From Brevundimonas sp. (GTDB lineage: Bacteria > Pseudomonadota > Alphaproteobacteria > Caulobacterales > Caulobacteraceae): DNA of 64,000 nucleotides. Both the position numbers and the translations under genes were made by a program. How positions within the stretch are numbered: the first letter of the stretch is position 1; every line of letters starts with the position of its first letter. The stretch is from assembly GCF_035626975.1 (NCBI RefSeq), contig NZ_DASPMQ010000001.1, positions 4,574 to 68,573 of the forward strand, in the 5' to 3' direction. Positions 26,623-30,287 of this stretch are shown piece after piece. The notes beneath the pieces were generated by a model. The model did not search any database. It had not been told where the DNA came from and saw only the letters and a list, made by a program, of their open reading frames with translations.

Positions 26623-26707
26623 TGCTCTAGCATGACGCCCTTACCAATCGCGATACGGGCGCCTATCTTGCGGCGCTTCCGCACAATCGCCCCCTTTGAG
26701 GACCGCC

Positions 26708-27643
26708 GTGACCGATCACGCGCCCGCCGCCGCCGCGCCCCCCGCCGCGCCCCTGGCCGACAACATCGCCGCCGCCTTCCAGATCGAGGGTTGGCCGGTG
26801 CGCGGCCGTCTGGTCCGGCTGGGCGACGCCATCGATGCCATCCTGTCGGCCCACGCCTATCCCGAGCCGGTCGCCGCCCTGCTGGGCGAGGCCTGCGCCC
26901 TGGCCGCCCTGATCGGCTCCGCCCTGAAGTTCGAGGGCCGGCTGATCGTCCAGGCCCAGGGCGACGGCCCGGTCCGCTACGTCGTCGCCGACTACGACAC
27001 CCAAGGCCATCTGCGCGGCTACTGCCGTTTCGACGAGGCCGAGGTCGCCGCCGCCTCGCAGGGCTTCGCCCGCCCCGGCGCGAAGACGCTGCTGGGCGAG
27101 GGGGTGTTCGTGATGACGCTCGACCGCGGCCCCGATTTCGAGCGCACCCAGGGCATCACCCCGATCGAGGGCGAGAGCCTGTCGCTGGCCGCCGAACATT
27201 ATTTCCAGCAGTCCGAGCAAATCCCGACCAAGGTGCGGCTGGCCGTGGGGGCCATCACCACGGACGCGGGCACGGCGTGGCGCGCCGGCGGGGCCATGAT
27301 CCAGGTCATCGCCGCCGACGACGCCCGTGGCGAGACGCTCGAGACCTGGGACCGCAGCCGGGCCCTGTTCCAGACCCTCGGCGACGACGAGTTGATCGAT
27401 CCGACCATTTCGCCGGAGACCCTGCTGTTCCGCCTGTTCCACGAGGACGGCGTGCGGCTGGAGGACCCGCGCGCCCTTAGCGCCGTCTGCCGCTGTTCGA
27501 AGGACCGCATCGGCGCTGTGCTGGCCTCGTTCGGGCCGGAGGAACGCGCCGACATGGTTGAGGCCGACGGCAAGATCCGGGTCACCTGCGAATACTGCGC
27601 CACGGTCTACGAACTGGAGCCGGAGGACATCGTCGCGGGGTGA
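26708..27643 (+). CDS. hslO: Hsp33 redox-regulated chaperone
   Basis: VRGRLVRLG, YFQQSEQIPT, CRCS...CEYC zinc motif; GTG start at 26708. Confidence 0.93.
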   Translation: MTDHAPAAAAPPAAPLADNIAAAFQIEGWPVRGRLVRLGDAIDAILSAHAYPEPVAALLGEACALAALIGSALKFEGRLIVQAQGDGPVRYVVADYDTQGHLRGYCRFDEAEVAAASQGFARPGAKTLLGEGVFVMTLDRGPDFERTQGITPIEGESLSLAAEHYFQQSEQIPTKVRLAVGAITTDAGTAWRAGGAMIQVIAADDARGETLETWDRSRALFQTLGDDELIDPTISPETLLFRLFHEDGVRLEDPRALSAVCRCSKDRIGAVLASFGPEERADMVEADGKIRVTCEYCATVYELEPEDIVAG

Positions 27644-27648
27644 AGGCG

Positions 27649-27674
27649 ATGTCCGTTAGGGGTGGATGGCGGAC
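27649..27674 (-). repeat. CACCC-core hairpin unit
   Basis: Minus strand GTCCGC-CATC-CACCC-CTA-ACGGAC(AT), 1 nt after the stop of ORF 27676. Confidence 0.75.
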
Positions 27675-27675
27675 C

Positions 27676-28131
27676 TCACTTCCGGGTGAAGCGCCGGATG
27701 TCGAACCCGAGCAGAACGCCCTCACCCAACCGGGCAACGCAATTGGGCGACAGCGCCACAAGATCCGATGCTGGACGATCGTCCAGCACGATCCTGACCC
27801 GAGACTTTGACTCCGCGGCGAGGACAGTGACGGGGCCGTCGAAACAACGCTGGGCGACGGCGCCTGCATCCAACACAAGGCTTCCGGGTGTCGCATCTGT
27901 CGGAAACGGCTCAAACAGGCGCTCACCCGCCCAATGCGTGCTGTGGATCATAAGCTCGAGCCGACAAACCATCCTCCCTTCCGCAAACGGGAGCAGCAAA
28001 GAGCTGTCGATGTTGAGTTCATCCTCGACAGTCGGCCAACCTGAGTCGACGATCAGGAACGGCCGCCGCCGCGCATGCGCCAGCGATCCTCTGGGGGAAA
28101 AGGGGCCGCGTGTCGCGCGGATGTGGGCCAT
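27676..28131 (-). CDS. Hypothetical protein (putative cassette cargo; start uncertain)
   Basis: Open frame with atypical, AT-richer codons, bracketed by hairpin units at 27649 and 28158; alternative starts at 27972 and 27951. Confidence 0.45.
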   Translation of the reverse strand: MAHIRATRGPFSPRGSLAHARRRPFLIVDSGWPTVEDELNIDSSLLLPFAEGRMVCRLELMIHSTHWAGERLFEPFPTDATPGSLVLDAGAVAQRCFDGPVTVLAAESKSRVRIVLDDRPASDLVALSPNCVARLGEGVLLGFDIRRFTRK

Positions 28132-28157
28132 GCTGCAGCTAAGCAGAAGCGAGGCAG

Positions 28158-28180
28158 GGCCGCCACGGGTCGATGCGGCG
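28158..28180 (-). repeat. GACCC-core hairpin unit (degenerate)
   Basis: Minus strand CGCCGC-ATC-GACCC-GTG-GCGGCC. Confidence 0.55.
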
Positions 28181-28224
28181 AATGTCTCCACCGCAAAGAG
28201 CCGCCTTATCCGCCATCCCTCTCC

Positions 28225-28362
28225 CCGTCACCCTCGGGCTTGACCCGGGGATCAGACCGTCCGGTGCTCCGTCGAGCACACCACGGTCGGGCACGCAGGG
28301 CCGTCACCGCCGCACAGCCCGTCTCTCGCCCCTGATCCTCGGATCAAGTCCGAGGATGACGG
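28225..28362. repeat. REP/MITE-like inverted-repeat element (GTCATCCTCGGGCTTGACCCGAGG family)
   Basis: Arms 28225-28255 and 28332-28362 are near-perfect reverse complements; same family as 37992-38123. Confidence 0.85.
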
Positions 28363-28411
28363 CGGTGGTGAGATTGGGGCCTGAAAAATGCTTGGAACAG
28401 ATACGGTGAAG

Positions 28412-28435
28412 GACTGCAGCGGGTCGGAAGCGGCT
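28412..28435 (-). repeat. GACCC-core hairpin unit
   Basis: Minus strand AGCCGC-TTCC-GACCC-GCT-GCAGTC, 5 nt after the stop of ORF 28441. Confidence 0.65.
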
Positions 28436-28440
28436 CGGCG

Positions 28441-28857
28441 TCAGTTCCGGACACTCGCCGTCGCCTCCAGCCCGGCTGTCACCGGCGGCGCCCTTCGCTG
28501 CATCCGGAACGTCCCTGACCAGTCGCCAGGAATGACCCAGTGTCCGTCGATGCTGTTCCCGTCGGCGGAAATCTCCCCGGTGTAGTGGATCGGGTCCTGC
28601 CTCGGGCTGTCAGGGTATTTGGTGAAGCGGAGCTCGGCGCCCGCGCGCCGGCCCTCGATGGAAGCCCTGACCTCAAGGTTTCGGACAGGTCCGGTCAGGT
28701 CCGGCTCGAGCGTGGTTCCGCTGACCAGGCCCTGGTCGTCGACGAGTTCGGCCGTGAATGGCGTCGGAGGATAGGTGTCATTGGCGTTCCAGGCCGTGTC
28801 CTCCGGGTAGAAATAGACCCCGGTCCAAGTGCCCGAGAGGTCCGCCTCTGCGCTCAC
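28441..28857 (-). CDS. Hypothetical beta-rich protein coupled to phoB
   Basis: LSGTWTGVYFY...IHYTGEISADGNSIDGHWVIPGDWSGTFRMQR; its GTG start overlaps the phoB TGA. Confidence 0.7.
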   Translation of the reverse strand: MSAEADLSGTWTGVYFYPEDTAWNANDTYPPTPFTAELVDDQGLVSGTTLEPDLTGPVRNLEVRASIEGRRAGAELRFTKYPDSPRQDPIHYTGEISADGNSIDGHWVIPGDWSGTFRMQRRAPPVTAGLEATASVRN

Positions 28858-29543
28858 CCCCCCAGATCCAGCGAATACCCCGCCGAGCGCACCGTGCGGA
28901 TCGGGTTGATCGTGCCCTCGACGCTGAGCGCCTTGCGCAACCGGCCGACGTGGACGTCGACCGTGCGCGCCTCGACATAGACGTCCGAGCCCCAGACCGC
29001 GTCCAGCAGCTGTTCGCGGCTGAACACCCGGCCGGGGTGCTGCATCAGGTGGTCGAGCAGGCGGAACTCGGTGGGGCCGAGGTGGATTTCGGACCCGGCG
29101 CGCCTCACCCGGTGGGCGACCCGGTCGATGACGATGTCGCCGTGGTTGATGCGGTCGTCGGCCAGGCCCGGACGGATGCGGCGCAGCACCGCGCGGATGC
29201 GGGCGATCAGCTCGGTCATCGAGAACGGCTTGGTCATGTAGTCGTCGGCGCCGGTGTCCAGTCCGCGCACCCGGTCAGTTTCTTCCCCCCGGGCGGTCAG
29301 CATGATGATCGGCAGGTTGCGGGTCTCGGCCTTGCCGCGGATGCGGCGGCACACCTCGATGCCCGACAGCTTGGGCAGCATCCAGTCCAGCAGCACCAGG
29401 TCGGGCAGCCGCTCGTCGATCTGCAGCATGCCCTCCTCGCCGTCGGGGGCGACGACGACGCGATAGCCTTCCTTTTCGAGATTGTACTGGAGGAGCGTCG
29501 CCAACGCGTCCTCGTCTTCCATCACCAGAACATAGGGCTGCAC
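28854..29543 (-). CDS. phoB: Phosphate regulon response regulator PhoB
   Basis: LDWMLP, GLDTGADDYMTKPF, HLGPTEFRLL, RTVDVHVGRLRKAL. Confidence 0.96.
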   Translation of the reverse strand: MQPYVLVMEDEDALATLLQYNLEKEGYRVVVAPDGEEGMLQIDERLPDLVLLDWMLPKLSGIEVCRRIRGKAETRNLPIIMLTARGEETDRVRGLDTGADDYMTKPFSMTELIARIRAVLRRIRPGLADDRINHGDIVIDRVAHRVRRAGSEIHLGPTEFRLLDHLMQHPGRVFSREQLLDAVWGSDVYVEARTVDVHVGRLRKALSVEGTINPIRTVRSAGYSLDLGG

Positions 29544-29573
29544 GTCGTACTCTCCCGGCTAGTCGGTCGTCAC

Positions 29574-30287
29574 TCAGGGGGCGGCGGGGCCGCCGTCGTC
29601 CGGCGCGGGAGCCCAGCGCGGGCGTTCGCCCGCGAACTCCAGTCCGGTGATCTCGTAGTAGATGGTCTCGGCGATGTTGGTGGCGTGATCGCCGATCCGC
29701 TCCAGGTTCTTGGCCATGAACAGCAGGTGGGTGCAGGCCGTGATCGTGCGGGCGTCGCCCATCATGTAGGTCAGCAGCTCGCGGAACAGGCTGTTGTAGT
29801 GCTCGTCGACCTCGTCGTCGGTGCTCCAGACGGCGATGGCGCGATCGACCTCGCCGGCGGCGTAGGCGTCCAGCACGTCGCGCAGACGCATGGAGACCAG
29901 CTTGCCCATCCGCTCGATCGACCGCGTCAGCGGCTGCATCGGCTCGCCCTCGGCGAGGATCAGGCCCCGCTTGGCGATGTTCTTGGCGAGGTCGCCGGTC
30001 CGCTCGAGGTCGACCGCCAGCTTCATCGAGGCGAGGGTCCGGCGCAGGTCCGAGGCGACCGGCTGACGCAGCGCGATGAGGCGAATGGCCTTCTTCTCGA
30101 TGTCGTGGTGCATCGCGTCCAGCCGGCCGTCCCGCTCGACCACGGCGCGGCCCAGGGCCACGTCGCGGCGGGCCACCGAGTCGATGGCGTCGGCGACCTG
30201 CGCCTCGGCCAGGCCGCCCATGCGCGCGACCTCGGCCGTGAGCTGGTTCAGCTCGTCGCCGTAGGCCTTGACGGTGTGCTCGGGCAT
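29574..30287 (-). CDS. phoU: Phosphate signalling protein PhoU
   Basis: EHTVKAYGDEL, RQPVASDLR, DLERTGD, KNLERIGDHATNIAE. Confidence 0.96.
   Translation of the reverse strand: MPEHTVKAYGDELNQLTAEVARMGGLAEAQVADAIDSVARRDVALGRAVVERDGRLDAMHHDIEKKAIRLIALRQPVASDLRRTLASMKLAVDLERTGDLAKNIAKRGLILAEGEPMQPLTRSIERMGKLVSMRLRDVLDAYAAGEVDRAIAVWSTDDEVDEHYNSLFRELLTYMMGDARTITACTHLLFMAKNLERIGDHATNIAETIYYEITGLEFAGERPRWAPAPDDGGPAAP

Follow-up and report, generated by a model that had tools for sequence, protein, structure and literature searches.

Integrons are the textbook route by which bacteria stockpile and shuffle single genes, and besides them only the Xer-dependent dif modules are, to our knowledge, well documented as a system of such modules. 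Clusters of attC sites without an integron-integrase have been named CALINs (Cury et al., PMC4889954). In the pdif modules of Acinetobacter plasmids, accessory genes lie between 28-bp double-strand sites in two alternating configurations, and these sites mimic the chromosomal dif and use the host recombinases XerC/XerD (PMC6449649, PMC13141974). Here, we describe a locus between the convergent genes hslO and phoB of a Brevundimonas sp. (assembly G000, 3.37 Mb), in which short repeated units surround a single gene of unassigned function, ORF2. The locus lies in a stretch of 64,000 nt (G000:C1:4574-68573), referred to below as the window. It was compared with the other genomes of the genus (G-numbered; 121 with G000) and with fetched contigs and stretches, metagenome contigs among them (L-numbered). 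Based on this comparison, we consider it probable, at roughly 60%, that positions 27651-28435 represent a small, immobile and decaying gene-cassette array of a 24-bp two-site family, integron-like but distinct from integrons.

The 24-bp sites and the units at the hslO/phoB junction

Members of the site family consist of short inverted arms (GTCCGC...GCGGAC) around an invariant asymmetric core, which is CCACCC in C-type sites (consensus GTCCGCTTTCCACCCnnAGGCGAC) and CGACCC in G-type sites (consensus GTCGGCTTCCGACCCATTGCGGAC). A C-then-G doublet with a 25-nt period is frequent and reads CGCGCGCGC in the main array of the window (51.9-56.4 kb). Across G000, approximately 45-50 units form about 15 clusters, each of them with all its units on one strand. 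The preliminary description of the window had assigned three minus-strand units at the hslO/phoB junction, here called A, B and C, to the family of the main array, 24 kb away, and had named chance resemblance in GC-rich intergenic DNA as what would refute this. With a position weight matrix (PWM) trained on 39 confident unit copies elsewhere in G000, unit A (GTCCGCCATCCACCCCTAACGGAC) scored 20.2 bits; it also aligns with the C-type sites that follow the ORF2 homologues. At 20 bits or more, the real genome yielded 45 hits, the reversed genome none, and order-2 Markov genomes a mean of 0.2. Unit C scored 9.7 bits, a level at which 71 real hits compare with 11-25 expected by chance, and unit B scored 5.9 bits, for which a 1-nt gap was needed.

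Scored alone, units B and C are thus at chance level, and one might suppose that both are random matches, that only unit A is real and that no array exists. This explanation is already contradicted by the orthologous copies and retains hardly any credibility. In L127 and L128, which share about 97% identity with the window from phoB through ORF1 and ORF2 to hslO, the orthologue of unit C (GTCCGCTTCCGACCCGTTGCAGTC) reaches 27.9 bits, and one deleted and one substituted nucleotide set the window copy apart from it; L129 carries a 20.5-bit G-type site where unit C sits in the window. Unit B is conserved in L127 and aligns column for column with the G-type site (17-30 bits) upstream of the ORF2 homologues in L034, L035 and L036, with CGACCC.T.GCGG.CCT invariant. 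Because these well-preserved copies occupy the corresponding places next to ORF1 and ORF2, units B and C are regarded as genuine, and the sequence comparison confirms all three units as true members of the 24-bp CACCC/GACCC family. All three lie on one strand, and the order B (G-type)-ORF2-A (C-type) is that found in L034-L036.

The same units had been described as hairpins, a label that we do not retain. Their stems comprise 5-6 bp with calculated energies of -1.4 to -3.7 kcal/mol, and stem cells are paired in 77.8% of cases compared with 78.9% in shuffles (45 units), with no covariation. The pair 4-21 is unpaired in 26 of the 45 units, and the invariant positions C3, A12, C14 and C15 lie mostly within the supposed loop. 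Because stem covariation is absent and the loop is the conserved part, we read the sites as protein-binding; their profile looks like that of a duplex site recognised by a protein, in which short inverted arms enclose an asymmetric core. A role at the RNA level, in which the units would punctuate the operon tail as terminators, attenuators or mRNA-stabilising hairpins, appears very unlikely. Units A and C do follow stop codons by 1-5 nt on the coding strand, and arrays are co-oriented with upstream genes, as such a role would have it. However, the hairpins are weak and have neither a T tract nor compensatory changes, an Rfam search of positions 27000-29600 at E≤1 returned nothing relevant, unit B lies upstream of a gene, and the cargo of other arrays can be encoded on the opposite strand.

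ORF2 and the hslO/phoB junction among relatives

On the strand of phoB, the ORF1 stop is followed by the G-type site C, a spacer, the G-type site B, ORF2, the C-type site A and the hslO stop (Table 1). The distances of the units from the stop codons agree with the preliminary description: unit A lies 1 nt past the stop of ORF2 and 7 nt from that of hslO, and unit C 5 nt past that of ORF1. The earlier observation that units bracket ORF2 also stands, with a corrected start codon: since the lengths of homologues agree with a protein of 151 aa, the start was fixed at the ATG at 28131, so that unit B lies outside ORF2, 26 nt upstream of this codon.

ORF2 has no homologue in the 120 other genus genomes and six in metagenomes (60-89% identity, 133-160 aa). 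Its GC content at third codon positions (GC3) is 0.72 versus 0.92-0.96 for hslO, phoB and phoU. Neither ORF2 nor ORF1 matched a model of Pfam, NCBIfam or PADLOC, and the AlphaFold2 model of ORF2, with a mean predicted local distance difference test (pLDDT) score of 36, was too poor for a structure search. In four other contexts, homologues of ORF2 (60-94% identity) have a G-type site on one side and a C-type site on the other, and the homology ends at these sites. In L034, L035, L036 and L127, the G-type site is located 10-50 nt upstream and the C-type site about 5 nt downstream of the homologue, with unrelated outer flanks. In L035 and L036, the gene is flanked by a C-G doublet on one side and a C-type site on the other, and the arrays around it also contain a methyltransferase or a DUF7668 gene. 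L034 (89% identity) offers a further setting, with the gene enclosed by a G-type site and a degraded C-type site.

The boundaries of this homology are informative about the position of a putative exchange. In alignment A1, similarity starts inside the G-type site and stops inside the C-type site. Between G000 and L034, the cargo-distal arm of the G-type site differs and the cargo-proximal arm is common, and the C-type sites of both have an unusual cargo-proximal arm (GTCCGCCA) in common. This arm pattern, from two comparisons only, is the one that an exchange at or near the core would produce. Taken together, the comparison brings the mobility of the unit G-site-ORF2-C-site, as a cassette, close to demonstrated. 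The claim that repeats and cargo recur together, made in the preliminary description, therefore holds for ORF2, which has both sites in four other contexts, and not for ORF1. A further cassette was seen twice in G000, at the contig ends C40:45633 and C44:184514, where an identical C-type unit follows the end of a GNAT-like gene by 9 nt; the pair reflects either duplication of the cassette or a repeat in the assembly.

Between units C and B lies a 138-bp element whose inverted-repeat character, reported before, was borne out by arms of 31 nt. It has at least 30 copies in the genome (on C4, C5, C6, C18, C20, C39 and others) with 72-86% identity and sharp ends (CCGTCATCCTCGGGCTTGACCCGAGGATCAGACC...CTGATCCTCGGGTCAAGCCCGAGGATGACGG). 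It is short and non-coding, has terminal inverted repeats, occurs in many copies and shows presence/absence polymorphism, as is typical of miniature inverted-repeat transposable elements (MITEs). In the window, this element and short flanks form a 196-nt block that abuts unit B and is missing from the approximately 97% identical L127 (alignment A4), and it is therefore a recent arrival in a pre-existing array. No target-site duplication was recognised at the insertion. The 196-nt block has an imperfect 14-nt outer inverted repeat of its own (28181-28194 and 28362-28375). Signs of decay are present in both sequences: in L127, 9 nt are missing from unit A and the reading frame of ORF2 is shifted by 1 nt, and in G000, units B and C each have a 1-nt deletion.

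Table 1. Features of the hslO/phoB junction in the window (positions of the window)
Feature	Coordinates	Strand	Remarks
hslO (Hsp33 chaperone)	26696..27643	+	Pfam HSP33, E=1e-70; conserved left flank, convergent with the array
Unit A, C-type (CCACCC core)	27651..27674	-	Putative 3' boundary of the ORF2 cassette; PWM 20.2 bits
ORF2, 151 aa, putative cassette cargo, function unassigned	27676..28131	-	Metagenome homologues; low GC3
Unit B, decayed G-type (CGACCC core), 1-nt deletion	28158..28180	-	Putative 5' boundary of the ORF2 cassette
G000-specific 196-nt insertion holding the 138-bp MITE-like element	28181..28376	.	No counterpart in L127
MITE-like inverted-repeat element	28225-28362		31-nt terminal inverted repeats
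35-nt spacer separating units C and B, pre-MITE state	28377..28411	-	Kept in L127
Unit C, decayed G-type	28412..28435	-	5 nt past the ORF1 stop; orthologue 27.9 bits
ORF1, 138 aa	28441..28857	-	Last gene of the pst-phoU-phoB operon here
phoB response regulator	28854..29543	-	Pfam Response_reg and Trans_reg_C; followed by phoU, pstB

The preliminary description had proposed to align the hslO-phoB interval across Brevundimonas genomes in order to see whether genes are gained or lost exactly at the units. This comparison shows that, among close relatives, the occupancy of the gap between ORF1 and hslO differs exactly at the sites, the cargo changing between ORF2, other genes and none. Relative to an empty ORF1/hslO junction, the window contains 797 additional nucleotides, reaching from unit C to unit A. 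ORF2 occupies the gap in G000 and L127; in L129, whose ORF1 is 74% identical, it is filled by unrelated cargo in the arrangement G-x-G-y-C, and in L130 by an open reading frame without units. In G106 and G027, two of the genus genomes closest by hslO, different genes come after a C-type site located 18-30 nt past hslO, and the insert of G027 ends in a G-type site at its far end. In G021 (L045 6184-7309), an array of the order G-133 aa-C-114 aa-G-84 aa-C starts 27 nt past the phoB stop; cargo therefore occupies both G-to-C and C-to-G intervals. A remnant resembling the left half of a G-type site, GTCCGC(C/T)TCC(C/G)..., was noticed by eye in L014, L129, L130 and the window (27644-27650), in the stretch that separates the hslO stop from the nearest C-type site, and it may be what is left of a resident C-G doublet used as entry site.

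On the scale of the genus, hslO is found in 119 of 121 genomes, and 61 relatives were examined for the hslO/phoB interval, 51 of which had both genes in the fetched stretch. In 14 of these 51, the two genes are about 50 nt apart and the spacer is a bidirectional intrinsic terminator. The others contain 0.4-6.3 kb of varied genes, mostly without units. Units occur within the interval in 6 of 62 genomes, always on the strand of phoB. The hslO/phoB junction is a genus-wide insertion hot spot. The locus had been proposed as a second site of the repeat-plus-cargo association between convergent core genes; units are indeed present there, but it is not simply a second independent array, since the junction is a general hot spot. 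Inserts in the hot spot (L013-L032, L045, L087-L126) include genes for a protein of about 600 aa with a twin-arginine translocation (Tat) signal, a BlaI/BlaR-like pair, a 928-aa RTX-like protein and short-chain dehydrogenases/reductases.

ORF1, which the preliminary description had treated as unit-bounded cargo, has a different distribution. Homologues (45-55% identity) are encoded by 14 of the 121 genus genomes, and in seven of these 14, ORF1 and hslO converge across a unit-free gap of 5-45 nt from stop codon to stop codon. Because it stands beside hslO without units in these seven relatives, ORF1 is judged from its genomic distribution not to be unit cargo, and half of the refutation foreseen for the earlier proposal, conservation of both genes in relatives that lack the units, thereby came true. 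In four of the seven, the upstream partner to which ORF1 is coupled is a periplasmic-enzyme gene of about 600 aa. ORF1 follows phoB directly in G080, G008 and G086 as well as in L127-L130. Its translational coupling to phoB was corroborated by the sequence: a GTGA at 28854-28857 combines the TGA stop of phoB with the GTG start of ORF1, and the same 4-nt overlap is found in L127-L130. The GC3 of ORF1 is 0.82. According to its AlphaFold2 model (pLDDT 86), the product is a small cytoplasmic calycin-like protein with an eight-stranded beta-barrel; the best PDB match of the model is the Cap15 (cyclic-dinucleotide-receptor) barrel, with a template modelling (TM) score of 0.55-0.68, and lipocalins come next.

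The arrangement also bears on expression. ORF2, all sites and ORF1 are co-oriented with phoB, and the bidirectional terminator of the compact relatives is missing from the junction in G000. Within 27500-29700, no terminator-like and no promoter-like site was recognised, the latter by the sigma-70 consensus, outside which Caulobacterales promoters fall. Since ORF2 has no recognised promoter or terminator of its own and is co-oriented behind phoB-ORF1, it is predicted, and appears plausible, that it is transcribed via read-through from the Pho-regulated operon. In G000, 10 of 11 scorable arrays are co-oriented with an upstream core-like gene (set comprising C1, C8, C19, C30, C38, C39, C44 and C57), and five arrays lie between convergent genes, which suggests that arrays settle in operon tails.

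The candidate recombinase and the spread of the sites

G000 encodes six proteins with a PF00589 hit, none at the locus; two are Xer-like (XerC/D-like genes on C16 and C20), and the rest are larger integrases, including P4-type ones. No small tyrosine recombinase gene lies beside a site in this genome. Among the arrays fetched from relatives, we found a tyrosine recombinase of 210 aa that consists of the catalytic domain only. It falls below all NCBIfam cut-offs, with XerC and XerA as the nearest models, and has no homologue in G000. Within the genus, it is present in 38 of 121 genomes and intact in 22. Its gene is convergent with the arrays and located at their distal end. In 20 of the 27 loci that include the 3' end of the gene, a site lies 34-45 nt past it on the opposite strand (19 C-type, one G-type), often with alternating G- and C-type sites beyond. 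The number of sites per genome has a median of 9 with an intact recombinase versus 6 without (one-sided p=0.016, uncorrected for phylogeny).

P4-type integrases were considered as the cassette enzyme and rejected: they occur near arrays on C44 of G000 and in 3 of 20 fetched arrays, but with no fixed geometry. In the four cases, G000 C44:182.2-184.6 kb, L039, L047 and L056, integrases of about 420-440 aa lie 1-2 kb from the arrays, one of them beside a tRNA gene fragment; some arrays may ride on integrative islands.

An alternative to the dedicated enzyme is that the units are true recombination sites used by the host XerC/XerD, as for the dif modules of Acinetobacter plasmids. The numbers would suit this possibility, with sites in 117 of 121 genomes and the small recombinase in 38, as would the Xer-like genes in G000 and the two alternating kinds of site, which resemble the alternating orientation of pdif sites (PMC6449649, PMC13141974). 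We nevertheless hold it to be quite improbable: the only dif-like site of G000 (TTTGCGCCTAAGATATATTATGCGAAAT, 11-6-11) has no similarity to the units, and the C-type site is conserved at 34-45 nt past the gene of the small recombinase.

A second alternative needs no enzyme at all. The units could be passive repeats, selfish or similar to repetitive extragenic palindromic (REP) elements, and the differences between relatives could arise through homologous recombination of the hslO/phoB flanks at the hot spot. The span of the junction (about 50 nt to 6.3 kb, with most inserts unit-free), the lack of a recombinase at hand in G000 and the REP-like position of units at the 3' ends of genes are all compatible with it. 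On the other hand, no REP-associated tyrosine transposase (RAYT) is present, and about 50 copies in some 15 clusters of uniform orientation are not the hundreds of dispersed copies expected of such repeats. Moreover, the stems show no covariation, with the 'loop' as the conserved part, ORF2 keeps both sites in four unrelated contexts whose flanks are not hslO/phoB, and the recombinase gene is tied to a site in 20 of 27 loci. Overall, we regard passive repeats as an unlikely explanation, though one to be taken seriously.

Several observations speak against an array of recombination sites served by the 210-aa enzyme. The association between the number of sites and the recombinase is weak and uncorrected for phylogeny. 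The recombinase is missing from G000 and from 83 of the 121 genus genomes, whereas 117 of the 121 have sites; therefore, either arrays outlive the enzyme or another enzyme acts. In the main array, C- and G-type sites alternate strictly, but here two G-type sites, C and B, follow each other. Recombination itself was not observed, and the crossover point was placed from two sequence comparisons only. Most inserts in the hot spot are unit-free, and therefore homologous recombination of the flanks can also remodel the locus. Finally, the empty ORF1/hslO gaps of relatives contain no recognisable resident site by which a first cassette could have entered.

Both the recombinase and the sites extend beyond the genus. 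Plasmids of Alpha-, Beta- and Gammaproteobacteria commonly carry homologues of the recombinase (60-72% identity). In the three plasmids inspected, pMOL30 of Cupriavidus (L131), the P. aeruginosa megaplasmid pPUV-1 (L132) and a Bosea plasmid (L133), the flanking sites are not of the Brevundimonas type. The Bosea plasmid alone shows a loosely similar motif (TTCCCACCC), and the recombinase gene of pPUV-1 is bracketed by inverted GGCCGGTTAGCGAC motifs, a different type of site. As the plasmid sites differ, we make no claim of site conservation across the recombinase family. With up to two mismatches allowed, the unit pattern also turns up, in small numbers, in sister genera within the family and in one genus from a different family of the same order. 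Exact matches to the sites were found in 27 IMG/VR viral contigs (L134-L160), several of them as arrays, and in at least 120 GTDB contigs, including Sphingomonadales, Lysobacterales, Caulobacter, Phenylobacterium and Methylobacterium; one metagenome-assembled genome of Sphingomonadales (L224) has eight exact sites within 4.5 kb. These exact matches far outside Brevundimonas suggest a platform that reaches well past the genus.

Proposed history of the locus and comparison with known systems

Returning to the cassette array as the preferred reading, we propose the following hypothetical course of events, in which (i) a cassette of the form G-site-ORF2-C-site would have entered the gap between the convergent stops of ORF1 and hslO; (ii) the sites would act as double-strand recognition sites of a site-specific recombinase, the likeliest enzyme being the 210-aa tyrosine recombinase made up of a catalytic domain only, and exchange would take place within the core or beside it; (iii) the MITE-bearing insertion later split the spacer between sites C and B; (iv) the array would now be frozen and eroding, like an integron cassette array without integrase, which is probable because G000 lacks the 210-aa recombinase; and (v) ORF2 would be expressed by read-through of the phosphate-starvation operon. 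More tentatively, and with somewhat less than even odds in our estimation, the locus may belong to an undescribed and widespread system of cassette exchange in Proteobacteria, which would combine a recombinase of about 210 aa with two heterospecific 24-bp sites and insert promoter-less cassettes into operon tails, in this case that of the PhoB-controlled pst operon.

The value of the locus lies in a series that the larger array of this genome cannot give: one defined junction of core genes is seen empty, filled with ORF2, filled otherwise and eroding. In addition, one cargo gene occurs in four contexts, always with both site halves. With two 24-bp sites and a 210-aa enzyme, the mechanism is directly testable. 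If it is true, cassettes behind phoB would be switched on by phosphate starvation, and captured genes would inherit the regulation of the host operon. If the sites are inert repeats, the locus would still be a well-resolved example of a hot spot between core genes.

Full-text searches returned no publication in which the unit sequences appear or a system of this kind is reported from Brevundimonas. Among described systems, integrons with CALINs and the Acinetobacter dif modules come closest. As in integrons and CALINs, mostly promoter-less accessory genes stand in rows, each bounded by a short site, with the sites in one orientation; a tyrosine recombinase occurs elsewhere in the clade; arrays persist and erode without the enzyme; and expression would presumably depend on an upstream promoter. 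However, the sites described here are 24 bp long (49 bp as a doublet) and of two kinds, whereas attC sites span 57-141 bp with R''/L''/L'/R' boxes and GTTRRRY; the units have no conserved GTTRRRY and no sign of single-strand folding. The associated recombinase of 210 aa is convergent at the distal end of the array, in contrast to the integron integrase, which is divergent at attI. Neither an attI nor a Pc was found, and the defining features of integrons and CALINs, the attC structure and IntI beside attI, are absent.

With the pdif modules, the system shares modules that occur in many contexts together with their sites, and in both cases the mechanism is deduced mainly by comparison. The units differ from pdif sites in being chromosomal, in direct orientation and tied to a dedicated small recombinase. 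The sole dif-like site of G000 (C39:90004-90031) has the classical 11-6-11 layout with seven mismatches to the E. coli dif and is probably the dif of the chromosome; pdif/Xer modules were rejected as a classification, the units being unlike this single site. Like REP elements and REPINs (REP doublets forming hairpins), the units are short, GC-rich, imperfect palindromes past stop codons, but they are low in copy number and clustered in one orientation around cargo. A REP/RAYT system was rejected as well, as no Y1_Tnp (PF01797) gene was found in G000, while six control genomes were positive, and the stems lack covariation. With the main array of the window, the locus shares one site family, the order of a G-type site upstream and a C-type site downstream of the cargo, and one recombinase family in relatives; it differs in having a single cargo gene, eroded sites, a MITE that has landed in it and a position at the tail of a regulated core operon.

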